Source: Alphaproteobacteria bacterium
GTDB lineage: Bacteria > Pseudomonadota > Alphaproteobacteria > SP197
Length of the DNA stretch: 64,000 nt
Assembly (NCBI GenBank): GCA_965228895.1
Contig: OZ245842.1
Span: 2,560,001-2,624,000 of the forward strand
Direction: 5' to 3'
Positions 30,050 to 56,947 of the stretch are shown in pieces. A program made the translations under genes and the position numbers. The notes below the pieces were generated by a model. That model was not told the DNA's origin. It worked only from the letters and a program-made list of their open reading frames with translations, and did no database searches. Every line of letters starts with the position of its first letter. The stretch's first letter is position 1.

Positions 30050-30381
30050 TTCGTCACCAGCCCGGACTCAATGGCGGCACTCATCCACTCGTACGCTTTC
30101 TCCAAGGACTTTGCCGTTCTTGCTGTCTGACGTGAGCCCAAGGGCATGTGGATGTCATGCATGGCGTCGAAGATGGACTGGCCGTAGGCTGTCGCCTTGC
30201 TGTCAACATGTGTCCAATACTGAACGTAGGCGCCGTACGGGAACTCGACAGGCGCAACCTCCGGGTCCTCTCCGGGCGAGACGAAGGCTTCGGAAATTAG
30301 CAACTCACCATAGGGAGTCGTTTCGCGGTGGATCTGGTGGCCCTTGCCCTCGAACGCCTTGATGATGTCTTCTTTTTTCAT
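30046..30381 (-). CDS. Hypothetical protein
   Basis: Translationally coupled between terL and portal. Confidence 0.65.
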   Translation of the reverse strand: MKKEDIIKAFEGKGHQIHRETTPYGELLISEAFVSPGEDPEVAPVEFPYGAYVQYWTHVDSKATAYGQSIFDAMHDIHMPLGSRQTARTAKSLEKAYEWMSAAIESGLVTK

Positions 30382-31775
30382 AGATGCATCCCAACGGAGG
30401 GCATGACCTCAATTTTTCTGTGATGTGGTTTTGTCTTCGCGTAGCGACGCATCATCACGGCGTAGAAGCACGCCTTCAAAACATCGTCCCGCTTGGCAAC
30501 GATCTTGCCGGAGTCGTCGCGGTGGTAGCTGCGGAACTCCTCGAAAAACTCCTTGCAGCTCTCAAAGACCTTGAACTGGCCCTGCTGCATCATGTTGATG
30601 ACGTCTTGAACCACCGGCTCGACAGCCTGCCTGCCGCCCGTCTTGTTGTCGTAACGCGCAGAGCGGGAGAGCATCTTGACGCCCTTCTCGACGTACTGGT
30701 GTCTCAGCTCTTTCCCCGAACCCTTGTCGTGCTGGTGGCCGTCATGCGGCCATGAAACGGGAGCCCACGAGTCAACGCGGTTGATAGCTTCCGCGTGTGT
30801 TGCGGCGTCCCCCCCGGTTTCCCGGTAGGAACGGGTGACGTAGATGATGTCTTTGTCTCTATCGATGGCCAGATCACACAGCCCGAAAGGATGGCCGTAA
30901 CCGAAGTCGATGCCCTTGATCTTCGCAAAGTGCGGGGGGATCGGCATGACGGAAACCTTGATGTCTTCCTCGGAGAAGGGGAACACCCTGCCCTGTCCCA
31001 TCATTGGGACACCCAGAGTCCGGGCCTCAACCTCATAGTCCGGATAGGACTGCTTCAGCTCGTTCTTGTCGTCTTCATCCAAGTGAGGCGCGTCGTCCCA
31101 AGTCGCTGTTACAAGCTGCGTACCCCGTAAGCCTTCCTGGAAGTGGAGAACCAGGTCCGTCACACCCAATAGAGGTGTGAACGTCACCATTATCGTGCCC
31201 TTGGATGTCAGGATTCGTGTGAGGGCTTCGGTGTAAATCTTGTAGTCGTCGGGCTCCTCATCCAACCACACAACGATGGGCGCGGTGCCCTGCCACTTCT
31301 GCCAACCCTGATCGTATGTCTTGAAAACAATCGTTGAGGTGCCGCGCCTGTGCTTGACTTTAACTGTGTCAACAACGTCCGACACGCCAGCCTGGCGCAT
31401 CTTCGGTTTGCCTTTGATCTTGGACTTTGGGATGAAGCCGGTTCCCAGCTCCTCACCAATTCCCCCAATCAAGGCCCTTTGTGTAATGTCACGTGAGGAC
31501 TCCGATGTAACCGAGCCAACCCATATCAGGCCGGGTTTATCGAACCTCTTTCCTTCCCACCAGTCCGGGTATTCGCCGGTTGCGTGCATGGCGACTTCAG
31601 CGGCGGCGCATTGGGTTTTGCCAACCCGGTTTGCCGCCATGACCATCCGTTCCCGAACATCGGTGTGATGGGCTTTCTGGAAGGGATAGGGCTCATAAAA
31701 CTCCAAGGCGTTCTCAGACAGAAAGGCGTCAACCTTGTTGAAAAACTCGGCTGTCAGGGCCTCTAGGTTGTCCAC
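30378..31775 (-). CDS. terL: Terminase large subunit
   Basis: PYPFQ, Walker A AANRVGKT, Walker B VWLDEEP, TFTP, nuclease GIDFG...DDV. Confidence 0.95.
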   Translation of the reverse strand: MDNLEALTAEFFNKVDAFLSENALEFYEPYPFQKAHHTDVRERMVMAANRVGKTQCAAAEVAMHATGEYPDWWEGKRFDKPGLIWVGSVTSESSRDITQRALIGGIGEELGTGFIPKSKIKGKPKMRQAGVSDVVDTVKVKHRRGTSTIVFKTYDQGWQKWQGTAPIVVWLDEEPDDYKIYTEALTRILTSKGTIMVTFTPLLGVTDLVLHFQEGLRGTQLVTATWDDAPHLDEDDKNELKQSYPDYEVEARTLGVPMMGQGRVFPFSEEDIKVSVMPIPPHFAKIKGIDFGYGHPFGLCDLAIDRDKDIIYVTRSYRETGGDAATHAEAINRVDSWAPVSWPHDGHQHDKGSGKELRHQYVEKGVKMLSRSARYDNKTGGRQAVEPVVQDVINMMQQGQFKVFESCKEFFEEFRSYHRDDSGKIVAKRDDVLKACFYAVMMRRYAKTKPHHRKIEVMPSVGMHL

Positions 31776-32392
31776 TCTCTAGCCCTCCCTGACAAAAACC
31801 TGACTCTGCCGTTGAAAACCTGCTTGCAGGCATTCTCCCAGATGGACTCCTTGGCCTCCCGGTTGAAGTTCGTCCAAGCGGGCTTCTCTCCGTATTTCAA
31901 AAGAGAACTCTCATCGGGCGGGTCGAAGTAGTGCCCGCTGTCGTCTAACGGCATGCCTGCGACGGTGACGGACTCGTAACCCAACCCAAGCGCTGTATAG
32001 ATGGCATTGAGTCCTGATGTTCCGTGGCCCGGCCACGGCCAGACGTGCTGAACGTGAGACTGATAGCCGCACGAATGCGTCATCAACCGGCTGTCGTAAC
32101 CTTTGTATCGAAAACTTCTTGCCGTCACCCATGTCGGGATCTGATCGCCGTGCATGGAGAACCAATGTCTGATTTCACACGGCAGGTGCATACCGATGTC
32201 ATTAACAACAAGAACATCGGCGTTGTAGATGTTGACGTTTTCAAGATCGTCCCAGACACACCTGCCGGACGCGATAACGATGCACTCACCGGAAAACGCC
32301 CCCGCCACCTCCGGTAAATCCTTGTTCGCCTTGAACCCCTCGTCCCTCAACCACTTGCTGTTGAGGATGTCAGCGGTAGGCGAAGCCGCCAT
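31763..32392 (-). CDS. Maf/MptE/sialyltransferase-like (Rossmann) enzyme
   Basis: IVIASG, VVND, GTSGLNAIYTALGLGYESVTVAGMPL...HYF pattern. Confidence 0.55.
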   Translation of the reverse strand: MAASPTADILNSKWLRDEGFKANKDLPEVAGAFSGECIVIASGRCVWDDLENVNIYNADVLVVNDIGMHLPCEIRHWFSMHGDQIPTWVTARSFRYKGYDSRLMTHSCGYQSHVQHVWPWPGHGTSGLNAIYTALGLGYESVTVAGMPLDDSGHYFDPPDESSLLKYGEKPAWTNFNREAKESIWENACKQVFNGRVRFLSGRAREWTT

Positions 32393-38985: not shown

Positions 38986-39507
38986 TCAATGCCTCTGCAT
39001 CCTTGCTTCCAGCTGCTTGTACAGCGGGTGTGTTGTCCATGCCTCTCCGAAGAGCTCCTCGCCTTTGTGCAGGATGTCTGCAAGGCTCTCGCGTGGTGTC
39101 TCGTCCTTGATGCGATCGATCAGGTGCCCCTCAACCTTACCAATGATCTCATGGAACCCGCGTGCCGCCGTCCACTGCCCAGCCTTTAGTGCGCCCTCCT
39201 TAAGGGCCTCAGTCTCCGACACATACTGCTCCCTTGAGCGGATTACCTGGCCCGACACACCAGCCAATCTGAGCAGCGAAATCGCTAGGGCCACCTTAGG
39301 GCTGTGCTTTAGCCTCGCGGCCTCCACAGATACGCTCGCGTCACCCATGTTCTGAGCGTCATAGGCAAGCCTGTAAGCCTCGATATTCGCCTTGCCCTCC
39401 AAGAGAGCCGTCACAAACGCGACCTGCTTCTCGGTAAGCTCGGCAAGGACCGACAGATCCTCCTCTGTGATATCTGGGCTATGCGAGGGCTTGGCGTTCT
39501 GGGCCAC
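38986..39507 (-). CDS. terS: Terminase small subunit
   Basis: LTEKQVAFV...EAYRLAY...EAARL..SPKV pattern typical of Terminase_2-type proteins. Confidence 0.85.
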
Positions 39508-40003
39508 TTAAACTCTCCAACATCTTCACCCTGTCTACTGCGTCAAAGTATCCCGACATACACCGAAACACGTCATCCTCAGCTCTCTGGAGCGTCAGCC
39601 GATCTACGGCATGAAGATGCGCGGGTGTGTAGTCAGCAACATTCACAGGATGAGCTATGAGTGTGATGTCACCAAAAATACCGTCGTAACGCTCCCAGCG
39701 AATCTTGCTGTCGCGCACAGCGCCCGGCTTGGCCGCCCACCTTCGCGCCCTAGCAGCATGGCGCTCAGCAATGGCGCTCATAAGAGCTAGCAAGGGCTCA
39801 GCAATAAGCCCGTCGCGCTTACGACGGTTACACAGCGAACAGGCCAAAACCATGTTGCTTATATCGTCCTTCCCACCTCTAGCCAAAGGCACGACATGAT
39901 CAAGGTCCGACGCACCTGGTGCGCCACAGTATTGGCAGTTGCCGCCATAAGTCGAGATCAGCGCCGCCCTTAAGTCTTTATTCAGCGTCTTACGTTGTGC
40001 CAT
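39479..40003 (-). CDS. HNH endonuclease
   Basis: CQYCG...[10 protein letters not shown]...N...CSLCNRRK; adjacent to terS. Confidence 0.9.
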
Positions 40004-40057
40004 TTATCTTAAATAATTCGCCTAGTTAACCTTGAAAAGTTTACAGCCATCCCCATC

Positions 40058-40189
40058 TATAATGTATGGGCAACGGCATATAGCCAGCGCCAGCCGGGTT
40101 AGCCCCGGTGCCACGATCTGGGACGTGGCGAGCACCGAAATCCCGGTGACATTCCGTCATCGGGTAAGTCGGGAAGGGGGTGAGGCTCT
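40058..40189 (+). promoter_or_regulatory. TATAAT -10 box followed by structured 5' leader and strong SD
   Basis: TATAAT 40058-63; stems ccggg/cccgg, ggtgc/gcacc enclosing gccacg/cgtggc, cccggtgac/gtcatcggg; SD GGAAGGGGGTGA; no clean -35. Confidence 0.55.
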
Positions 40190-40264
40190 ATGCTGAAACT
40201 TCGTTTCCGGCTTAGGTGGCGGGGTAGGAAGATAACCTTGGTTATCAACCTAACCCTCACCTAG
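40190..40264 (+). CDS. 24-aa cationic amphipathic peptide (not in ORF track)
   Basis: MLKLRFRLRWRGRKITLVINLTLT with strong SD. Confidence 0.6.
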   Translation: MLKLRFRLRWRGRKITLVINLTLT

Positions 40265-40350
40265 TCGGTAGGCGGCGGCGTCCAAATGGCTATCAGGGCC
40301 GGGCGTCGCCGCCACGGCTGAATGTAAGCTCTCTAACACTTGAGTTCAAC

Positions 40351-40527
40351 ATGACACCTGAACAACTAGCAACCAAGGCCAGACGAGCATTTGGTGCCAA
40401 ATGGCAGTCCAAGCTAGCCAGGGCCTCCGGGTACTCTAAGTCCTACATCTCGCTCATTGTGGCGGGGCGCAGGAAGGTGCCCGATGAACTGGTGAAGCTG
40501 CTGGACGCAAAAACGCCCCAGCGGTGA
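40351..40527 (+). CDS. 58-aa XRE-family HTH protein (not in ORF track)
   Basis: MTPEQL...WQSKLARASGYSKSYISLIVAGRRKVP. Confidence 0.75.
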   Translation: MTPEQLATKARRAFGAKWQSKLARASGYSKSYISLIVAGRRKVPDELVKLLDAKTPQR

Positions 40528-40569
40528 GGCTGAGGCGCTAGACAGACTGAATGTACAGTACCCAAAATC

Positions 40570-41055
40570 CTACGCCCGGCATTCCAAGAAGTCAAGCTCG
40601 CGCTTGTGTAGCTCACGCTGCCCAGCCATAAACCGCCGATAGCGGGCCTCAAGCTCATCCTCGTCGATGATCTCCGCGTCAAGATCCAGGGCCGCCAACA
40701 CAACCGCCTCTTCGGCTTCTTCAACCCCCACTGTGAACCACTCACCCCGAAGGTTCTTGTCTGATAGCAACTCGTGGGCGCGCCTCTCTACCCGCTCAGA
40801 GACCAAACGCCCCACAAACCAAAAGAACGTGCCCAGCTCCAACTCGCGCCAGCTATCACACTGAATGCCCCGCAGCCTGCTCTCAGGGTTTTCTGCCATG
40901 CCTACTTTGCAGGGGCTGCCAAGCTCCTTGTCTCGAATGATGTAGACACAGTGATACTTCGAGTGCAGAGCAAACGCGAACGGCGTTAACGGGAAGCCAA
41001 ACTCATCAGTGTGTTTCCGGCCTCTACGCCCCAGCTCTAATTGCGCGTCGATCAT
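40570..41055 (-). CDS. GIY-YIG / T5orf172-like protein
   Basis: VYII...KVGMAENPESRL..IQ, VERRAH..L...RGEWF. Confidence 0.8.
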   Translation of the reverse strand: MIDAQLELGRRGRKHTDEFGFPLTPFAFALHSKYHCVYIIRDKELGSPCKVGMAENPESRLRGIQCDSWRELELGTFFWFVGRLVSERVERRAHELLSDKNLRGEWFTVGVEEAEEAVVLAALDLDAEIIDEDELEARYRRFMAGQRELHKRELDFLECRA

Positions 41056-41458
41056 TTTGCTCCTCGTCGTTTATCAGAACAGCCAGCCTTAGATAAATCT
41101 CCATGAGCCGCCGTCGCGCGGTAGACTCGGAAACCCCCATCATTTTGCCCAGCTCAAAGAGCGTGCGGCGGTTCGCCCTTGCCCACACCAACCTTGCCTC
41201 GTCCTGCGGCAAGAGCTGTAGCCACGGAACCGCCTCATCCATTCGATCAATCTCATCCGGAGAAGGTAGAATCCGGCTCTTCAGCGTTAGATCTCTTAGC
41301 GCGGCCTCTGTTGCGTACTTGTCCCACGGGTCGCGTATCCACTCCGGCCAATGCGTTCTATGGCCCATTGGCCCCCGAACAGGCGGCAAGCGGCGAAGCG
41401 TCCGTGCAGCCTCCTTCATCCTAACGGCTATCTCAGCTCCGGTGATGTCGTCACTCAT
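41024..41458 (-). CDS. DUF6362-like, sigma region 4-type late transcription regulator
   Basis: EAARTLRRLP...WPE...PSPDEIDRMDEA..WL..L...LVWARA...GVSESTARRR; Q-like position. Confidence 0.7.
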   Translation of the reverse strand: MSDDITGAEIAVRMKEAARTLRRLPPVRGPMGHRTHWPEWIRDPWDKYATEAALRDLTLKSRILPSPDEIDRMDEAVPWLQLLPQDEARLVWARANRRTLFELGKMMGVSESTARRRLMEIYLRLAVLINDEEQNDRRAIRAGA

Positions 41459-43520
41459 CGGGGCCTCCGCAGTTCGCCCGTATCGCGCGCCATTGGCTTT
41501 TCTTGTCGCGCTCCACCTCCCGCGCCAGCCTTGCTATCAACTCAAGGGCTTTGTCGGCTCGCATCACGTCGTCGCGATACTTCGAGTCTTCTGCCTCTTG
41601 GGCTATGCGTTGGAGTTCGTTCATTCGGGTGGCTCGCTAGGCAGTTTCCAATGCGTCGGTTGGGGCTCCATGTCGTCGCCACAACACGGGAAATACGCTC
41701 GGCCCTCGGTGTCGATGCAGCCGCCACCAACCTCAATCCATTCGGGGGACCAAAGTTCGAGGTTTACGCCGCGCGGCGCGTTCGCAATATCTTCTCGCCA
41801 GTCACTCATCGCTCATTGAACCCCCTGTGTATCAAGCACACCCAACTCTGCGCGAAGGGCCTCTTCTGACCCGGCCTCGCCCACCAGCCATCGGAGCACA
41901 TCAGCTATCGTGTGGCTGTCAGTGATAACGTGGTATTCGTCGCCCTGCGGTTCGGACACGAACTTCAAAAGCGGAGTCTTAATCTCCATCGTTAAACTCC
42001 ATCGCCATCATCTCGTGACCCAAGAAACCCTTCGAGTCTTCGATCAAGCTCTTGCTGCCATTGGTCTTGGTGCAGATGACAGTAACCGTTGTCCGTTGCG
42101 CAGTTCTTACATTGCCTATCGCGCCAGCCGTTTGAGCCACGGGCAATAACAATTGCCTTGCAAAGGCCGTCATCATCCATCGTTAAACTCCCGTATCCTC
42201 TTGCCACTCACCGCACCATTCATCGCCTGTGGTGAAGGGCCAAACACCGTCGTGTGCCGTGCCACCAGCCCACTCATAGGCTTTCAGTGAAGGTGCGTGA
42301 CGACGGCATTGAAATGAACCGCGCTGCGCACCCGCACCACGCCAAAACCGGCATGTTGCACAACACTCTGTCTTGTCCGGGCCTCTGTCAGACATCGTCA
42401 ACGATCCGCTCTACTTCTTCCCGCGTCACCTTGCCGGGATTCTCAATTTCCATCTCGCCGTATATCCAACTGATGCGCTGGGCTCGCTTCTCCTCTGGCG
42501 TCATCTTGTGATGTTTTGCCGCCTCCAAAAGTTCGTCGAGCTTTGGCCTGTCAGTCATTGGTTGTGTTCCCTGACTCTCCGGTGTGTTGGGCCAACTCAG
42601 CTTTGCCAGACGTGCAATTCGGGCATAGAACGATGTTGTCGAGGTTGTCTTTGCAACGGATGTAGCCGGTGTCAAAGCACGTCGCGCACGATGGCTTGCC
42701 CGCCCTCTCCAGCTTCGTTAGGCGCTCTTCAAGGTGTTTGACGACGCTTTCCAGATTCAGAAGCCTAGCCTCGTCTGTCATTCACCCTCTCCATCTTTGG
42801 TGGCGTGTGCAATGAGCGCCAGCAACGCTTCGGTATCGTCCACTTTCTCGAATTTCCATGGCCTGTTCTCGAGGACGCGCACCGCTTCATCTGGAGCCAG
42901 ACCGCCGCGCGAAGCCAACGTTTCAAGCGACTGACTGTGGTTCGCCTTGGCGCGTTCTTCGTGAGGAGCAAACAGCGACCACGGCAGGTAAATTCGCTTC
43001 GGCATCATGATCGGGAACTTGCGCTCACCCATTGCCGTTCTCCTTGGCCTCAGTACCTTGTCAGGTATTCGGGGTTGTTGAGCATGGCTTCGCGCTCCTC
43101 GACGTGTTTCTCCTTGGCCTCGTGTGCTTGGATGAGGGCTATGCAGAGGGCTAGGGCAGTGCATTTGCCGCCGCGCCCGTTGAGGCCGCCTTGGTATTCG
43201 GCAACACCCTCATCGTTGTCCGCCAGACAGCGCAGCCACGCCGAGTCTTCTTCGAGCGTCCACACCCACCCCTCCGGCACCAGTGACAGGGCGTCGTCTA
43301 CCGAGAAGCTGGGATGTGGCCGCGCTTCGTCTTCGTAAATCGGGCGACACATCGCGCCGTCGTACAAGCGAGGCTCCGGCGCGCTCCACCACGTCTCTTG
43401 GCCCTTGTCAGTGTGTGTCCACCCAAGCGCCAGCAACACCTCGTCAGACAAAGCGCGTGAGCCCGAAGGGGCGGCGTGGAGCCTTTGGAGGAGTGAGTTA
43501 GTCATAAGACGTGCCTCCAT
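41451..43520 (-). other. Cluster of small coupled nin-like ORFs (incl. DUF551-like and Cys-rich proteins)
   Basis: ORFs at 41451-41624, 41621-41809, 41813-41989, 41992-42180, 42183-42401, 42551-42781, 42778-43032, 43050-43520. Confidence 0.6.
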
Positions 43521-43960
43521 GTCCGCCGATTGAGCACAGAGGCGACGGCCGAATCAGAAACTTCGAAGTGGCGCGCTATTTCTCGTTTGGTGAACGACCC
43601 CGACATCTGCCTGATAGCGCGCACATCACACTCTTTTAGTTTTGCTCTTCCATGGTTCCTCCCCAAAGGTGGACGATGACGCCCCTTCCTCACCATATCT
43701 GCCATGTTTTCCAGTTTTATCCCCAAGAACAGATGCAAAGGGTTCACGCAGGCGGGGTTATCGCAACTGTGACAAACCTCAATCCCTTCGGGTATGGGGC
43801 CGCGCGCCACCTCATATGCAATCCTCGATGCGATCCGTGACTTGCCGTCACGCCAGAATCTCCCGTAGCCGCTGTTGAACAACGATAACTTCCAAGGCCA
43901 ACAGTCATCATCGCCACCGCGCTCGTAACTGCGCTCAAAACGTCTCAACCATTCATCCAT
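43502..43960 (-). CDS. HNH endonuclease with C-terminal HTH
   Basis: CWPW...GYG, CHSCDNPACVNPLHL...NMADMVRKGR. Confidence 0.9.
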   Translation of the reverse strand: MDEWLRRFERSYERGGDDDCWPWKLSLFNSGYGRFWRDGKSRIASRIAYEVARGPIPEGIEVCHSCDNPACVNPLHLFLGIKLENMADMVRKGRHRPPLGRNHGRAKLKECDVRAIRQMSGSFTKREIARHFEVSDSAVASVLNRRTWRHVL

Positions 43961-45322
43961 TAGCGTCTCCGTCGTCTGGGGCGGGCTTAGCGAACTGGAC
44001 AATGATGGGCGGCGGGTTCAGCGCTTTCTGTAAAATGATGGGGTCCATGAGCGCCGCGATGTGTTCGTCCTTCATGGCGATAACCTTGCGCAGGTGGTCA
44101 TTCTCTCGCTGCAATTCGTCGCGATGTCGCTCAATTGCCTTCCAATAATTTTCGGATGCGCTCAAGGCTCTACCCTCTCGTCTGCTGCCCAGGGGGCGCA
44201 TTCATACGGATAGAACTGATCGCAATTCGCACAACGCCAGCCGTAGTATTCTTCGCGCCAGTCGTGTCTCCACCCGCACTCGCGCGGCGCATTCTCCATG
44301 TCTGTGCGCCATGTCATGACAGCAACCACACAAGCGAAACAACGCCGAGCAAGACAATGAGCGCGCAAATGACTGTATCGGTGTGGCTCATGTCTCCGTC
44401 CCCACACTGACATAGACAGGGCCAAGCCAAAGAACGAAGCGCCCGAAATGCCCGCAGTCCCGGCCAACAAAACAGCCCCAAATTGGAAAGCGCATCGTGA
44501 ACGTCATGCCTTCTCTCCCACACTGACATCGGGGGCGTCCAATTCTGACTCGTGCATGGATAACGTGATGTTCCCGGCGCTAATGCTGACAACATCGAAG
44601 CCGCGCTTGCGGAGACGCTTAATGAGCTCTTCGGCTTCGGCAATATATCCAGAGTACGCGCCGCCCAAGGCACCCAACTCCAATTCTTCTGCCCTCTTAC
44701 CAAGGCGAAACTTGTCCAGCTTCCCATCAATACTGGCCCACACCTCCGCCAATGCTTTCACGTTCTCTGGCGCTTCTACGGGTGTGTTCATGGGGAGTCT
44801 CCGTAGATGGGGTGTTCAGTCCACAGCACGAAGTCGTCAGCCTCGTACACGTCGCCACGCTCAACCGCGTCGTGAAACTCCACCTCATCGAAGATGTCTG
44901 CGCCGCGCGACGGCCAGCACCACTTCTGCAACGGCTCACCATCGTCGTACTTCTCCACCCATCGGGCGGTTACCACCGTGTCGCACACGCCAAAGTCAGA
45001 TTGCGGACGGCAAACAACGATGGGCTCGCCGTCCTTGCGCGCTGTTTCAATTGGCTCCCAGTCCATATGTCTCTCTCCCGTGCTAGGCTGCGCTGTCTTC
45101 AAACTCGCTACCCGCAACCCAAACAGCCGAGCCGCCCGTAAACTCCATGTTCGCCCACTCGCAGCGGTAATAGGCCCTGCCGTCCGAGCCAGCGTTTCGC
45201 ACATAGCCCTGAGCACCCCACGGCTTTGGCTCCGACACCACCATCAGGCAGCCCGCGAAACGCTTGTCGTGTTCGGGATCGATCTGGACGATATCGCCCG
45301 GTTTGAGTTCGCATGGTTCCAT
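43953..45322 (-). other. Cluster of small hypothetical ORFs (incl. DUF551-like MDWEPIETARKDG)
   Basis: Tightly packed ORFs, e.g. 44504-44791, 44788-45066, 45083-45322. Confidence 0.55.
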
Positions 45323-45906: not shown

Positions 45907-46576
45907 CGCGTAGTCTCCTCGTTATCCAGGCGATAGGATCAACAGGCGTGTTCTTCTGCGCCTCAGCTATCGCCGCCATCGTCAGCTCGTCTCCAAACTC
46001 CGAACACCACTTGCCAGCAAGCGAACGCAGCCTGTCCTTCGGCTTGTCAGCAGCACCCGCCAACCACGTCAGGCCATCACCGAAAATCATCTCTCGGAAC
46101 GTCGGCGGCGAAGCGCCAGAACCGTTAGGTTCTGAATCTTTAGAGGGTATGGCTTCTGGCTTATGGGTCATGGGATGCCCATTGGGTAACCCATTGGGTG
46201 CGGACTTTTTTTGTTTGGTTTCAGCATCTTGCGGCCAACGCTTTCTTGCGTGTTTCTGGCCTTCTTTGGCTCTTTTCGCGTCGCGAACCATGCGACGGCT
46301 GTAGATGCGGCCTTTGCGATCTCGGGAGAAGATGCCCCATCGATCAAGCTCGTCCATGAGGGTTGCCGCCTCGGCAGCTGAGATGGCGGCGGCTTTTGCG
46401 ACACCATTCGCATCAAGGGGTTTGCCTCTAATGGCGAGATAACCTGTCGGCTCGGCTTTCGCGCAGATGCAAAGCATCCGCATCCACAGTCCTTGGGCAG
46501 CAAGTGAGCACTGCCTAAGACCTTCATCTGATTCCCAATCGGACCAGAAGAATTTCGACCATGATGTTCCACTCAC
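45830..46576 (-). CDS. Phage replication initiator (winged-helix, DUF1376-like)
   Basis: WSKFFWSDW.SD..LR.CSLAAQGLWMRMLC, IYSRRMVRD; internal iterons. Confidence 0.75.
   Translation of the reverse strand: MSGTSWSKFFWSDWESDEGLRQCSLAAQGLWMRMLCICAKAEPTGYLAIRGKPLDANGVAKAAAISAAEAATLMDELDRWGIFSRDRKGRIYSRRMVRDAKRAKEGQKHARKRWPQDAETKQKKSAPNGLPNGHPMTHKPEAIPSKDSEPNGSGASPPTFREMIFGDGLTWLAGAADKPKDRLRSLAGKWCSEFGDELTMAAIAEAQKNTPVDPIAWITRRLRGAKPTNPEDDAFMRAAHSVIAGEQH
46160..46222. other. Putative phage origin of replication (iterons inside initiator gene)
   Basis: CCCATTGGGT at 46178 and 46190, further ATGGG units, adjacent T-tract. Confidence 0.55.
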
Positions 46577-46932
46577 AAAACAACCTTCGTGTGCTTGCGC
46601 GAGTTACACGACTTGCAGAGTGTCTGGAGGTTGGCGGCAACAGTTTCGCCACCAAGTGCAACGGCAAAGATATGATCGACTGTCAGTCGGCGGCGCGCGC
46701 CGCATTCCTGGCATGTGAAGTCATCGCGCTCCCAAACTTCCCACCGCAATAACTCAGGAATGGGAGTCCGTTTTGCGCGCGGGTTTACTCGTGTGTTGAG
46801 GCAACGCAGCGGGATGCTGGTAGCTCGCCTGCCGTGCTGGTGCTGAGTAATGCGGACGACACCATTAGCGCCATACTGCTCAGTCGCAGCGCCGAGCAAT
46901 TCCCCCCTGACATCTTCCCAGAGCTTGCTCAC
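46573..46932 (-). CDS. HNH endonuclease
   Basis: VWERD.FTCQECG...LTVDHI...GG...NLQTLCKSCNSRK. Confidence 0.9.
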   Translation of the reverse strand: MSKLWEDVRGELLGAATEQYGANGVVRITQHQHGRRATSIPLRCLNTRVNPRAKRTPIPELLRWEVWERDDFTCQECGARRRLTVDHIFAVALGGETVAANLQTLCKSCNSRKHTKVVL

Positions 46933-47972: not shown

Positions 47973-48299
47973 TCAAGCAGCGCTCCGCATTTCAGCGTCC
48001 TGCTTGTTCCATCCTGCGTTCCACATGTCGTAGTAGATGTGGCCGGGTATATGTGGGTTAGCCTTGAGGCTTTCGTTCCGATATCGAGCGGCCACGCCCA
48101 TCTGAAAGCGCATACCCAGGAAGCCTGTTGTGGGGCGGATGCCAAACTTGTAACGCGGGTAGTCGCGCTCTGCGGCAGCCTTGATGCGCTCGGCTGTCTC
48201 CAGTTTCCTGTAGGGGCCGCCCCAGCGTTTTTGATAGCCTTGGCCGTCGGCAAACAACACATAACCTTCGATGGGAAGTTCCATAGTTACCTCCGTCAT
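47973..48299 (-). CDS. Hypothetical protein
   Basis: ORF track; coupled to CII-like gene. Confidence 0.55.
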   Translation of the reverse strand: MTEVTMELPIEGYVLFADGQGYQKRWGGPYRKLETAERIKAAAERDYPRYKFGIRPTTGFLGMRFQMGVAARYRNESLKANPHIPGHIYYDMWNAGWNKQDAEMRSAA

Positions 48300-48775
48300 G
48301 CCACCACTCCAGGGCGGCGTTTCTGAACTTCATCAAGAACACGCTGCGCGGCGTCTACGGCTTCCCGCGCCTCTTTCTCAGCGCGCGTGTAGTCGGCGAA
48401 GTCGAACTGCTCCCTTCCTCGAATTACATCCACCGCCTCGCCCAACTCTTTCGCTGCGTCCAACAAGAGCTCGTCAAGGCTGGAAACATGCGGCGGCTTG
48501 TCGTCATTCGGGACTAGGCTATAGCCCTGTAACCGTGCTAAACTGCGGGTTACGGCGGGTTCGCCTATGTCCTGTTCCAAGTCCAACACAGCATCGATGG
48601 GTATGCAGTCGGACTTGTCCGGGTTGCCGTAGTTCGAGAGTGACGACTTCGAACGGTTCACCACCTGCGCGGCTGACTCACACCCGCCCGCCATCTTGAC
48701 GGCATGACGTGTTGCAGCTTTCAGCGCGTAGACTTGTTCCTCACGCCTCATTGGAATTTCTCCCGACTTGTCCAC
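48296..48775 (-). CDS. CII-like phage regulatory protein
   Basis: LKAATR..V...GG.E.AA....RSKSSLSNYGNP...IPID....LE; downstream of cro. Confidence 0.7.
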   Translation of the reverse strand: MDKSGEIPMRREEQVYALKAATRHAVKMAGGCESAAQVVNRSKSSLSNYGNPDKSDCIPIDAVLDLEQDIGEPAVTRSLARLQGYSLVPNDDKPPHVSSLDELLLDAAKELGEAVDVIRGREQFDFADYTRAEKEAREAVDAAQRVLDEVQKRRPGVVA

Positions 48776-49085
48776 TCGCCGAACAACCAGTCGGCGGGCA
48801 TATTCCCAATCATCGAGTCCGTTAAAAGCAGGTGAGATTTATGGGCGCACTTCTCTCTGTCGCTGAGCTGTGTTCCAGACTCGCCAAGGATGTCGCGAAG
48901 GCTGGGTTCGTCGGCCCGGTCGTATTTCCGTTGGCTATCCGTGCTCATGTGACCTCGCGCACGAAGGCCGCCGATCGCGGAACAAAAGGCGCACTTGGTG
49001 GAACGCTCGTGATAGAATTGGGACCAACCCACACAACGCGGGGGTTAACCCAATGGGAGAAGTTGTTTGTTTGGCGACACATAGG

Positions 49086-49298
49086 TCAGGCCGCCTCGGA
49101 GTTTTCGGAAAAGAACCTTTGGAACTTTTCGTACGTCCGAACGGTGAACCCCGCGCCCTCCTCAAGTCGCGAGAAAAACGCAGTGTCGTTCATGACTTTC
49201 CGGCCCAGCGTCGGAAGGCTCATCCCCTCCGTCGCGCAGAACTGGCGAGCCTGCTCCAGAAGCTGTGTGCGAAGCGAGGTGTTGTGATGGATGTTCAT
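49086..49298 (-). CDS. Cro-like HTH regulator
   Basis: 70 aa, GMSLPTLGRKVMND..FFSRL; divergent from repressor. Confidence 0.75.
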   Translation of the reverse strand: MNIHHNTSLRTQLLEQARQFCATEGMSLPTLGRKVMNDTAFFSRLEEGAGFTVRTYEKFQRFFSENSEAA

Positions 49299-49310
49299 GA
49301 TTTCCTGTAT

Positions 49311-49382
49311 AGCGGATTTTCCCGTGACACCGCAAGCGGTTTTTCCCGTGGTGCTATTTGGGGTCGGGTGCGGGAAAATCCA
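49311..49382. promoter_or_regulatory. Operator region between cro and cI
   Basis: AGCGGATTTTCCCGTG (49311), AGCGGTTTTTCCCGTG (49335), inverted CGGGAAAATCC (49371). Confidence 0.8.
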
Positions 49383-49385
49383 TAC

Positions 49386-49721
49386 ATGGCGTTGGACACT
49401 TTTTTAGAGCGGCTGGATTGGGCGATAGCCCGCGAGGACACGAGTCGTCGTGCTGTGGCTATCGAGTGTGATCTTCACCCCAACTACTTCACGGCATTCA
49501 CGCAGCCCAGCCACAAGCGCACAAAGAGCCCCCGCGCCGAAACGGTGGTGGCTATAGCTAACCATCTAAGAATAGACGCAAAATGGCTCGCAACTGGCGA
49601 GGGTGAGCCAGGCGGTGATGAGAGCCTACCGGCGGAGTATGGCTCCCTAGACGGCGCAGACCGGGCATTCGTCCACGACTTAATCCGCCAGCTCGCCGCG
49701 CGGGCCAAGCCAACCGGCTAA
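49386..49721 (+). CDS. CI-like XRE repressor, 111 aa, no S24 peptidase domain
   Basis: FLERL...SRRAVA...SPRAETVVAIANHL.IDAKWLATGEG. Confidence 0.85.
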   Translation: MALDTFLERLDWAIAREDTSRRAVAIECDLHPNYFTAFTQPSHKRTKSPRAETVVAIANHLRIDAKWLATGEGEPGGDESLPAEYGSLDGADRAFVHDLIRQLAARAKPTG

Positions 49722-55544: not shown

Positions 55545-55805
55545 ATGAGTCGGCCTAAGCCAAAATTCGCACCGGAGCCGCGCATTCTAAACGGCTACCA
55601 GGTGGCCTGCCGCCTGAACAAGAGCGAGGTATGGTTCGGCCAGAAGAGACGTCAACTGGAACAGATGGGATTCCCACGCCAGGACGAATTTCTAGGCGGT
55701 TGGGACGCCGATGCCATTGAACGATGGATCGATGAGCGATCCGGCCTATTCTCCTCCAAGAGCACGTTGAGGGAGGAGATGGAGGAATGGCAACGATGCG
55801 GGTGA
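55545..55805 (+). CDS. Excisionase-like HTH protein
   Basis: Small basic protein, FP......WD..AIERWID; overlaps integrase start. Confidence 0.7.
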   Translation: MSRPKPKFAPEPRILNGYQVACRLNKSEVWFGQKRRQLEQMGFPRQDEFLGGWDADAIERWIDERSGLFSSKSTLREEMEEWQRCG

Positions 55806-56836
55806 AGTATGTCACCGAACGGAACGGCTCATTCTATTTCGAGCCGTCCCAAAAGATGCGTGACCACGGGTTCCGGCCCGAGGCCCTGGGGAAAGACAGC
55901 GTTGCCGCCTACGCCCGCGCCAAAACGCTGAACGACGACTGGAAAGCCGTTCAAGATGGTCTAAAGGCGAAGCCTGACGCGATCGTCAAGGGCACCCTGA
56001 AGTGGCTCATCCGCGAGTATCAGAACAAGTCCGCGTGGTATGCAAAACTAGAGCCCCCCACAAAAGCCGAATACGACCGCCATCTTCAACGTGCCCTCGC
56101 ATCACCCATGGCACACCACCCCGTTCGAAGCATCCAACGCGCCGACGTTCGGATATTCTACGACAAGACCTTCGCGGATGCGACGCCCTGGGTGGCCCAT
56201 GACGCGCACAAGGTTTTAAGTCGCCTGCTCTCCTATGGAGTTGAGCTTGGTCTGATGCCAACCAACCCCGCCGCCAAAATGGAGATAGCGGAGCCCGACA
56301 GGCGCAAGGTGACTTGGCAGCCAGAACAAGTAGACAAGTTCATTGCCATGGCGCTGGCAGAGAACAGGCTGGGGTGGGCTTTGGCTGCTTCCATAGGCTA
56401 CGACAGCGGCCAGGACTTAACCGTCATACTCCACCGGCTATGGACGCACTATGACGGCGAAGGAATGGATTTTCGGCGCACCAAAACGGATGTGGAATCG
56501 TGGTCCCCCATGCGGGAAACAACACGAGGGCTTCTTGAGATAGCGCCGCGCTCATCCGTGAGAATCATCACGACAAGCACAGGCAGGCCCATCAACAGCC
56601 GCTCCTACTTCGGCAGGGTTTTCAGAGAATTGAGAGACAAGGCGGGGCTGCCCAAAGGGCTGAGGTTTAGGGACCTCAGACGCACCGTGGGGACGGAGAT
56701 AGACGCTGGTGGGGGCAACCCAGAATCGGTTCTGGGTTTGACGCCAGGATCACCCGTCAAGAAGCACTATGTGGTGCCCAGCAAGGACGCCGCACGAACA
56801 GCTCAGGCGAGCCGAAAACGGGAACAAAAGGGCTGA
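55787..56836 (+). CDS. int: Tyrosine recombinase / phage integrase with atypical active site
   Basis: Core-binding domain (NPA), RTKT, FRDLRRT, KHY; adjacent to att. Confidence 0.9.
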   Translation: MATMRVKYVTERNGSFYFEPSQKMRDHGFRPEALGKDSVAAYARAKTLNDDWKAVQDGLKAKPDAIVKGTLKWLIREYQNKSAWYAKLEPPTKAEYDRHLQRALASPMAHHPVRSIQRADVRIFYDKTFADATPWVAHDAHKVLSRLLSYGVELGLMPTNPAAKMEIAEPDRRKVTWQPEQVDKFIAMALAENRLGWALAASIGYDSGQDLTVILHRLWTHYDGEGMDFRRTKTDVESWSPMRETTRGLLEIAPRSSVRIITTSTGRPINSRSYFGRVFRELRDKAGLPKGLRFRDLRRTVGTEIDAGGGNPESVLGLTPGSPVKKHYVVPSKDAARTAQASRKREQKG

Positions 56837-56872: not shown

Positions 56873-56918
56873 TGGCATCCCCTAGGGGAATCGAACCCCT
56901 GTCTCCACCGTGAAAGGG
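56873..56918 (-). repeat. Prophage attachment site within the intact tRNA-Glu
   Basis: Identical to 13535-13580. Confidence 0.97.
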
Positions 56919-56947
56919 TGGTGTCCTAACCGCTAGACGAAGGGGAC
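56873..56947 (-). tRNA. tRNA-Glu (anticodon TTC), intact, 75 nt with encoded CCA
   Basis: GTCCCCT...CCACC-CTTTCAC-GGTGG...GGTTCGATTCC...GCCA cloverleaf; upstream TTGATT-N17-TATGTC at 57009-56981. Confidence 0.97.

Follow-up and report, generated by a model that had tools for sequence, protein, structure and literature searches.

A counter-oriented cassette in a prophage of an alphaproteobacterium (GTDB lineage SP197), located near 40 kb of the 64,000-nucleotide stretch of contig OZ245842.1 that was analyzed here (positions 2,560,001 to 2,624,000 of the forward strand, assembly GCA_965228895.1; hereafter the window), is predicted to give rise to an exceptionally stable, strand-specific structured RNA from its plus strand, directly ahead of a gene for a 58-residue helix-turn-helix (HTH) protein. 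A first-pass annotation, made from the letters of the sequence, had read this region as a micro-peptide toxin, defence or exclusion unit under the control of RNA structure and the HTH protein. The sequence features listed there are all present at the places given, but the toxin proposal is not borne out. The reading we favor, tentatively and with a confidence that falls somewhat short of calling it probable, is that 40070-40350 constitutes a structured 5′ leader of the HTH cassette, within which a 24-codon open reading frame (ORF) is incidental. The features on which the argument depends are as follows.

40004-40065, no strand assigned: AT-rich spacer between the start of the HNH endonuclease gene (40003, minus strand) and the structured RNA
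40058-40063, plus strand: perfect -10 hexamer, TATAAT
40070-40350, plus strand: presumed leader or non-coding RNA of ~280 nt with six consecutive hairpins (H1 to H6), its start placed from the -10 element
40093-40109, plus strand: H1, 6 pairs, mean pair probability 0.91
40110-40129, plus strand: H2, 6 pairs, mean pair probability 0.99
40142-40164, plus strand: H3, 9 pairs (1 G.U), probability 1.00
40167-40212, plus strand only: H4, 17 pairs (5 G.U), probability ~0.7
40172-40184, plus strand: G-rich run resembling a Shine-Dalgarno (SD) sequence, with GAGG 5 nt ahead of an ATG
40190-40264, plus strand: 24-codon ORF encoding MLKLRFRLRWRGRKITLVINLTLT, judged incidental
40214-40262, plus strand: H5, a long imperfect stem with the palindrome GATAACC-TT-GGTTATC at its tip, probability 0.84-1.00
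40271-40313, plus strand: H6, a 13-pair GC stem with a 4-pair tip, probability 1.00
40351-40527, plus strand: XRE/Cro-like HTH gene, 58 aa, without SD sequence

The plus strand of 40066-40350 folds at -138.7 kcal/mol, compared with -106.8 ± 5.0 kcal/mol in 200 dinucleotide shuffles (z -6.39), and none of the 200 shuffles folded as well as the native sequence. The reverse complement reaches -113.8 kcal/mol with a z of -3.90. When 1276 segments of 250 nt from both strands of the window were ranked by folding energy after regression on GC content, this region supplied the top three plus-strand outliers of the 64 kb (z -4.47, -3.86, and -3.82), while the minus strand of the same region ranked ninth (z -2.47). 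The multi-stem leader described in the first-pass annotation is therefore upheld, as the top outlier of the window on the plus strand and on that strand only. No shift in GC content accompanies the region.

The hairpins and their pair probabilities were obtained by partition-function folding of the single sequence. The main stem of H6, in which 40271-40283 pair with 40301-40313, comprises 13 pairs, two of them G.U, in agreement with the 13-bp GC stem noted earlier, and the hairpin sits 38 nt ahead of the SD-less start codon of the HTH gene. In H4 the pairing partners are the SD-like run and codons 3-6 of the 24-codon ORF, and H5 spans most of that ORF. H4 has a competitor in an alternative closing stem, 40074-40080 with 40189-40195, which would enclose H1-H3 in a four-way junction and bury the AUG of the ORF; in the single-sequence prediction the mean unpaired probability is 0.32 for the SD-like run and 0.49 for this AUG. 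A tRNA-like cloverleaf was considered for 40074-40195 and rejected, as its arms and loops are of the wrong size and ARAGORN found nothing; neither a tRNA nor a tmRNA was detected in the region.

The strand on which the structure was shaped can be approached through its imperfections. Four hairpins (H1, H3, H5, and H6) form on both strands, and their seven non-Watson-Crick stem positions are without exception G.U pairs on the plus strand, for which the chance is ~1/128 by hand arithmetic under a 50:50 null, and A.C positions, which would be wobble pairs on the minus strand, number zero; the remaining irregularities are, by eye, bulges and G.A or A.A mismatches. Selection acting on a plus-strand RNA would produce such a pattern, which palindromes of duplex DNA would not be expected to show. 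It bears directly on the possibility that the region works at the DNA level, either as a pac/cos recognition region for packaging or as a cluster of operators for the HTH protein. GC-rich inverted repeats adjoining the HNH gene and a weak terS-like gene would suit such a site, as would the 16-bp palindrome GATAACCTTGGTTATC at 40231-40246, which is present as first described, with 7-bp arms around TT, and has a half-copy, GTTAACCTTG, in the AT-rich spacer (40024-40034 against 40230-40240, 10 of 11 positions matching). Taken alone, the palindrome is unremarkable, and the 9-nt repeats of the region do not stand out from chance. In a window-wide inverted-repeat scan with an 8-nt seed, the region is not among 25 of the 33 pairs obtained, since wobble positions interrupt the seeds. 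The asymmetry of both the fold and the wobble pairs argues against a duplex site, no direct-repeat array was found in the region, and the large terminase, a protein of the Terminase_6 type, is encoded 7.7 kb away, whereas HNH-dependent cos cutting goes with terminases of the HK97 type encoded beside an HNH gene. We consider a role of this kind quite improbable.

The AT-rich spacer is probably a divergent promoter region. The perfect TATAAT claimed in the first-pass annotation is present at 40058 and is the single occurrence of this hexamer on both strands of the window (128 kb read), although some 9-10 would be expected from base composition according to a hand estimate; the minus strand has none in its entire length. 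Such rarity suggests a general avoidance of strong -10 hexamers. Inspection of the spacer by eye gave neither a CtrA box nor a GANTC methylation site. At the other end of the RNA, H6 is followed by no U-run on either strand, which leaves it outside the definition of an intrinsic terminator despite its GC-rich stem, and a consensus scan called no plus-strand terminator-like site either between H6 and the HTH gene or after the HTH gene. Because of these two negative results, transcription from 40058 should run into the HTH gene, and an RNA that reads into the gene without a recognizable terminator would be the long six-hairpin 5′ leader of a small regulatory cassette.

The HTH gene itself is, judged from its sequence and that of its relatives, a real gene. 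The protein matches Pfam HTH_3 with 23.2 bits, which is borderline against the cut-off of 23, and HTH_31 with 23.5 bits against a cut-off of 27. Its closest homologue (P0001) is likewise of 58 aa, is 91% identical, and has the same start. Comparison of the gene with a related metagenomic contig places 8 of 12 substitutions at third codon positions (hand count), and a one-base insertion in the same comparison is compensated 5 bases later, restoring the frame. The XRE-type HTH protein of 58 aa that the first-pass annotation had proposed thus stands; a designed HTH protein of solved structure and a phage immunity repressor were matched weakly as well, and relatives annotated as HTH proteins lend further support. 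The gene runs counter to the minus-strand genes that flank it and is divergent from the HNH gene. An SD sequence was present in 12 of the 22 genes checked and absent from the HTH and HNH genes. Close relatives are scarce: P0001 was the sole one among 5.8 billion proteins and was itself not found in metagenome contigs, genome contigs gave one partial match (45%, in an actinobacterial metagenome-assembled genome), and viral contigs gave none.

The related contig also bears on how the cassette may have been put together. Contigs from public sequencing runs were compared over 39400-41100; the four runs concerned are all represented by contigs and hence carry no starts, ends, or strand. A 1,957-nt contig from an aquatic metagenome (runs X3 and X5, with identical results) is ~96% like the window in a match that opens precisely at 40351, on the A of the HTH start codon, and extends past 41100, while the 828 bases of the contig upstream of this joint have no placement on the window at 80% likeness, and the 30-letter loose end does not resemble the window. 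The differences are clustered: 40351-40488 contains 12 substitutions and 2 indels and 40570-40699 a further 10 substitutions, while 40489-40569 and 40700-40980 are free of them. Clustered differences and a sharp joint point to a mosaic history, in which the HTH and T5orf172 genes would belong to one module and the leader, together with the HNH side, to another. The leader DNA was found in public runs only in the likely source run and in one run of the same organism label (X2), whose short identical pieces of 39606-40276 are not independent. More distant relatives of the HTH protein were found by tblastn in 11 phage records at 41-44% identity, two of which were inspected: the gene of Pseudomonas phage PPpW-3 overlaps the one before it, and that of Caulobacter phage C2 begins 18 nt beyond its upstream neighbor, in both cases without a leader. 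In none of the three contexts, therefore, does the leader or the peptide lie upstream of the HTH relative, which means that they do not form a conserved unit with the HTH gene. The first-pass annotation had itself set conservation of the peptide and hairpin upstream of homologous HTH genes as the test of its proposal, and the outcome goes largely against it. The leader instead appears to be an orphan that goes along with the HNH side of the joint rather than with the HTH gene.

These observations lend some weight to the possibility that a stand-alone non-coding RNA gene of ~245 nt, extending from 40070 to about 40315 at the foot of H6, belongs to the HNH-side module and acts in trans, as an antisense RNA, or as an immunity-type RNA, with the HTH gene merely lying downstream. 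The sharp joint at 40351 marks the RNA and the HTH gene as separable modules, H6 provides a very stable 3′ end, the -10 element would be the RNA's own, and the fold is specific to the plus strand. Yet H6 has neither a U-run behind it nor a called terminator, the region has no significant complementarity elsewhere in the 5.5-Mb genome (the best match is of 17 nt, E 0.09), no Rfam family covers it, and no structural look-alike was found beyond itself in its own genome, nor a credible one in 33 genomes of the family or 151 of the class. On balance we regard an RNA gene of its own as unlikely.

The searches for relatives of the leader were broad. Blastn against 50,697 phage records returned no match, and the 5.5-Mb genome holds no second copy. 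Among the 33 family genomes, which make up the whole order (the counts of 33 and 151 include the genome of the window), a 54-nt match was set aside as a chance match inside a coding region, and 401 class genomes gave only short GC-rich chance matches, the best with E 4.6e-5 per genome. The Rfam scan suggested earlier gave no family in 40004-40350 at E <= 10, whether 5 kb or 571 nt were scanned. Single-sequence covariance models were built for H1-H4 (R1) and for H5-H6 (R2, which was run on the window's own genome only). Both found themselves alone in that genome, R1 reached an E of 0.06 at best in the 33 family genomes, which is not credible, and its one match in the 151 class genomes, of 29.6 bits, was rejected because it falls within a long ORF that appears to encode pyruvate kinase. 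Such isolation would be compatible with a spacer that is rich in hairpins by chance, or with a decayed hairpin-forming mobile repeat, having no function at all, since the sequence is an orphan and hairpin-type miniature inverted-repeat transposable elements (MITEs) are carried by the same genome. However, neither a full nor a partial copy exists elsewhere in that genome, so that, being single-copy, the region is not accounted for by a MITE or other hairpin repeat of the genome, and the fold is the most extreme of the 1276 segments and adjoins the only TATAAT of the window. A functionless origin is the explanation to which we give the least credence, and it appears highly improbable.

If the favored reading, a structured leader of the HTH cassette, is correct, a plus-strand RNA would be transcribed from a promoter with TATAAT at 40058 and would run into the 58-aa HTH gene, forming a cassette between the end of the rightward early block (the DUF6362 and T5orf172 genes and a terminator-like site) and the minus-strand block that opens with the HNH gene. 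The stacked hairpins may stabilize the transcript, gate it, or both, with H6 placed ahead of the SD-less start codon and H4 in competition with the closing stem. In the lysogen, the counter-transcribed unit might also separate the early from the later block, as a barrier that works by antisense action or transcriptional interference, and the HTH protein may be a putative ligand of the GATAACC/GGTTATC palindrome and of its half-copy in the promoter spacer.

Several observations weigh against this reading. The -35 element is poor (TTGAAA at 40032-40037, with a 20-nt spacer to TATAAT), and the two-hexamer promoter scan did not call the site. H6 could end transcription even without a U-run. The minus strand also folds better than its shuffles. 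The joint that falls exactly on the ATG of the HTH gene would fit an independent RNA gene or an element of the left-hand module equally well, and it implies that the leader is not needed for expression of the HTH gene in the relative. No leader homologue was found in anything searched, which makes covariation analysis impossible and leaves the whole fold dependent on one sequence, and no RNA run is listed among the public runs that hold the stretch.

The 24-codon ORF, on which the toxin proposal was centered, is most simply explained by the RNA. In a 4-kb stretch, 71 ORFs reach 20 aa or more, this one among them, and its presence is hence not beyond chance. The peptide has 8 basic residues among its first 14, and the alternation of basic and hydrophobic residues that had been taken as beta-hairpin-like is indeed there, but it arises because the reading frame runs through the NGG-rich arms of H4 and H5. 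The only uncharged run is of 10 residues (ITLVINLTLT, T and N included), which is too short for a membrane, and a membrane-spanning helix of ~18 or more apolar residues is absent from the peptide. No credible match was obtained for it in Pfam, NCBIfam, PHROGs, or PADLOC; a Pfam glycosyl hydrolase C-terminal domain, the only Pfam match, was discarded at 17.2 bits against a cut-off of 22, and 0 of the 7 small ORFs in the region had a PHROG match. Measured against 24-codon windows from 21 validated prophage genes, the codon adaptation of the ORF (0.65) lies at the 13th percentile of in-frame windows and at the 69th of open off-frame windows. Homologous DNA that might reveal conservation of the peptide was found neither in the phage records nor in the 33 family/order genomes or the 401 class genomes, where the matches were chance ones.

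Translation of the ORF into a type-I-toxin-like, exclusion, or regulatory leader peptide, under the control of both mRNA fold-back and the HTH protein, would be favored by the ATG with GAGG 5 nt upstream, and the SD claimed earlier does exist as the G-rich run, which is predicted to be paired in H4 (~0.7) with the AUG at the hairpin tip. The stop codon lies 7 nt before H6, and translation could affect H5 and H6. The fold-back proposed in the first-pass annotation is possible: CCTCACC (40255-40261) is complementary to GGTGAGG (40178-40184), but the predicted fold prefers to pair 40257-40262 with AGGTGG at 40214-40219. Against translation stand the lack of a membrane-length hydrophobic segment, the absence of a credible match in the four libraries, the codon adaptation typical of off-frame ORFs, the fact that no antisense promoter was called in 40004-40350 by the scan, which was for consensus matches only and could miss a weak promoter, the absence of the element upstream of the related HTH genes in all three contexts, and the lack of a homologue in which purifying selection could appear. 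We therefore hold a translated peptide to be very improbable; the ORF is probably a by-product of G-rich hairpin arms and no toxin gene. The proposal of a micro-peptide toxin, defence or exclusion unit under HTH control is not supported on the same grounds, namely membrane segment, family, codon usage, and antisense promoter.

The setting of the region is a prophage that spans ~13.5 kb to 56.9 kb of the window and across which GC content falls from ~0.64 to ~0.57; the left end near 13.5 kb was placed from GC content alone. A tRNA-Glu(TTC) gene beside an integrase-like ORF is likely the attachment site and the right end of the prophage. The gene layout is lambda-like, with a repressor-like gene divergent from a CII-like gene at ~48.8 kb, ERF and SSB genes on the plus strand, and a long minus-strand array that runs through a RusA-like gene, two HNH genes, the DUF6362 gene, the T5orf172-domain gene, and the leader/HTH region, and then through the third HNH gene, the weak terS-like gene, a methyltransferase gene, unknowns, the large terminase, and a connector-like gene. 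Where the early block ends and the next block begins, the leader/HTH region is the one place with the opposite orientation. The neighboring features are as follows.

30378-31775: large terminase, Terminase_6N/6C
38986-39507, minus strand: weak terS-like gene, phrog_51, E 3.8e-7
39479-40003, minus strand: HNH endonuclease gene, divergent neighbor, without SD sequence, HNH Pfam match 7.2e-14
40530-40505, minus strand: terminator-like hairpin with T-run inside the 3′ end of the HTH gene, reading out of the T5orf172 gene, from a consensus scan only
40570-41055, minus strand: T5orf172-domain gene, convergent with the HTH gene and conserved beside it in the related contig
40595-40567, minus strand: promoter-like site TTGACT-17-TAGGAT at the end of the T5orf172 gene, a consensus match
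41024-41458, minus strand: DUF6362 gene, 79.6 bits, with weak Sigma70_r4 / ECF-sigma similarity
43502-44002 and 46573-46932: the other two HNH-domain genes
48296-48775, minus strand: CII-like gene, divergent from the repressor-like gene
48870-49721, plus strand: repressor-like gene, divergent from the CII-like gene
55787-56836: integrase-like ORF adjoining tRNA-Glu
56873-56947: tRNA-Glu(TTC) beside the integrase-like ORF

This layout raises the possibility that the structure belongs to the minus strand, as a late-type 5′ leader of the HNH block comparable to lambda pR'-tR', which would be read through with the help of an antiterminator or activator such as the DUF6362 protein. The promoter-like and terminator-like sites lie just upstream, and the hairpin follows the promoter-like site by ~35 nt in an arrangement that recalls lambda pR'/tR'. 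The DUF6362 gene occupies the place that Q takes in lambda, at the close of the early block, and with its weak Sigma70_r4 similarity the protein is a candidate regulator of late genes; no papers on DUF6362 came up in a full-text literature search. The leader travels with the HNH side of the joint, and its minus strand does fold at z -3.9. Nevertheless, the plus-strand fold is clearly better, the seven wobble positions all favor the plus strand, and the scan called sites no more often than in shuffles (promoter-like ones numbered 2 where 1.2 were expected, terminator-like ones 3 where 1.9 were expected). The AT-rich stretch beside the start of the HNH gene would also be the more natural place for its promoter. 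A minus-strand leader is thus improbable in our view.

As for the neighboring block, the earlier description of the region as divergent from a late HNH-terS operon is right about the divergence from the HNH gene but has only a weak foundation for the operon, as terS is a weak match and the large terminase lies 7.7 kb from the leader/HTH region, not adjoining it, and 7.2 kb downstream of the terS-like gene. Between the last two lie the methyltransferase gene, two phrog_1574 genes, and a 536-aa ORF without a family match. A 209-aa ORF (31763-32392), also without a family match, overlaps the start of the large terminase and may be the true small terminase subunit. The early region is unusually rich in nucleases, with three HNH-domain genes and the T5orf172 gene, whose domain we take to be GIY-YIG-related, within 8 kb. 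In the HNH protein encoded at 39479-40003 (174 aa), only the N-terminal HNH motif (residues ~23-64) is recognizable, and the C-terminal ~100 residues belong to no recognizable family. Relatives of this protein were absent at E <= 1e-10 from the 5.8 billion proteins, the search of the 401 class genomes returned the protein itself alone, and tblastn against phages gave only HNH-motif matches with <60% identity and <=40% coverage. No loci were found when the HNH, T5orf172, and DUF6362 proteins were searched in viral contigs.

Comparison with known systems places the region nearest to phage regulatory RNAs, without identifying it with any of them. Type I toxin-antitoxin loci, of which hok/sok, ldr, ibs/sib, and tisB/istR are examples, resemble it in having a small ORF in a highly folded mRNA with an SD-like run predicted to be paired and in residing in prophages, but they differ in the membrane-spanning hydrophobic peptide, the antisense RNA promoter, and the conservation, none of which was found here, and the codon usage of the ORF is non-coding-like; three of the four defining features tested failed. 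Phages also make regulatory or antisense RNAs in the lysogen or during early infection, such as lambda OOP, paQ, P22 sar, P1 c4, and P4 CI RNA. The region shares with these a structured RNA that opposes or flanks a major operon where regulation switches and that lies near small HTH regulators, but it has no Rfam match and is much longer with its ~250 nt and six hairpins, and no complementary target was identified for it beyond the opposite strand. Phage morons are promoter-gene units inserted between conserved phage genes, and a small counter-oriented unit with its own promoter between two gene blocks, bounded by a mosaic joint, is reminiscent of them, whereas the lack of a terminator and of a GC shift, and a cargo that is a regulator rather than a fitness factor, are not. 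By its position and orientation, the region would seem closer to phage antisense/immunity RNAs and moron-like inserts than to type I toxins.

Two further systems were compared. The lambda-type late control region comprises Q, pR', and the 6S RNA/tR', and Stx phages have the small RNA StxS. The present region similarly follows the last early genes and a terminator-like site and precedes a block that leads to packaging genes, but its structured RNA is favored on the opposite strand, no Q homologue was identified, and the sites are consensus matches only. IscB/IsrB omega-RNA, which we take to be the HNH-endonuclease-associated HEARO RNA, RF02033, is likewise a long structured RNA directly beside an HNH-domain gene, and against the NCBIfam IscB model the HNH motif reaches 40.6 bits. 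An IscB-type omega-RNA was nonetheless rejected, the score being far under the cut-off of 175 bits and covering the HNH motif only in a 174-aa protein without a RuvC part, and so was a HEARO RNA, as no Rfam family appeared at E <= 10 (HEARO included if it is in the release) and the RNA is favored on the strand opposite to that of the HNH gene. The region matches none of the compared systems by sequence or model, and the element is best described as an orphan candidate regulatory RNA.

Immunity-type phage RNAs are strain-specific, and the P1 c4 family has its place in Rfam. A more ambitious interpretation, which we regard as unlikely, is that the six-hairpin RNA is a new strain-specific immunity or timing RNA of the phage, which would adopt two conformations (H4 or the alternative closing stem) at the early/late junction and, with the Cro-like HTH protein as its partner, keep transcription from entering the block that leads from the HNH gene to the packaging genes, through antisense action or interference, until induction; if this were true, it would represent a type of module without Rfam representation. 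As it stands, the region is a single-copy orphan without comparative support and a candidate of modest interest until its transcript is shown, and it also serves as a warning against taking short ORFs within G-rich hairpins for toxin peptides. Lambdoid phages make key timing decisions at such junctions between early and late genes. If the RNA is transcribed as predicted, it would be an undescribed structured RNA at the passage from early to later genes in a marine alphaproteobacterial temperate phage.

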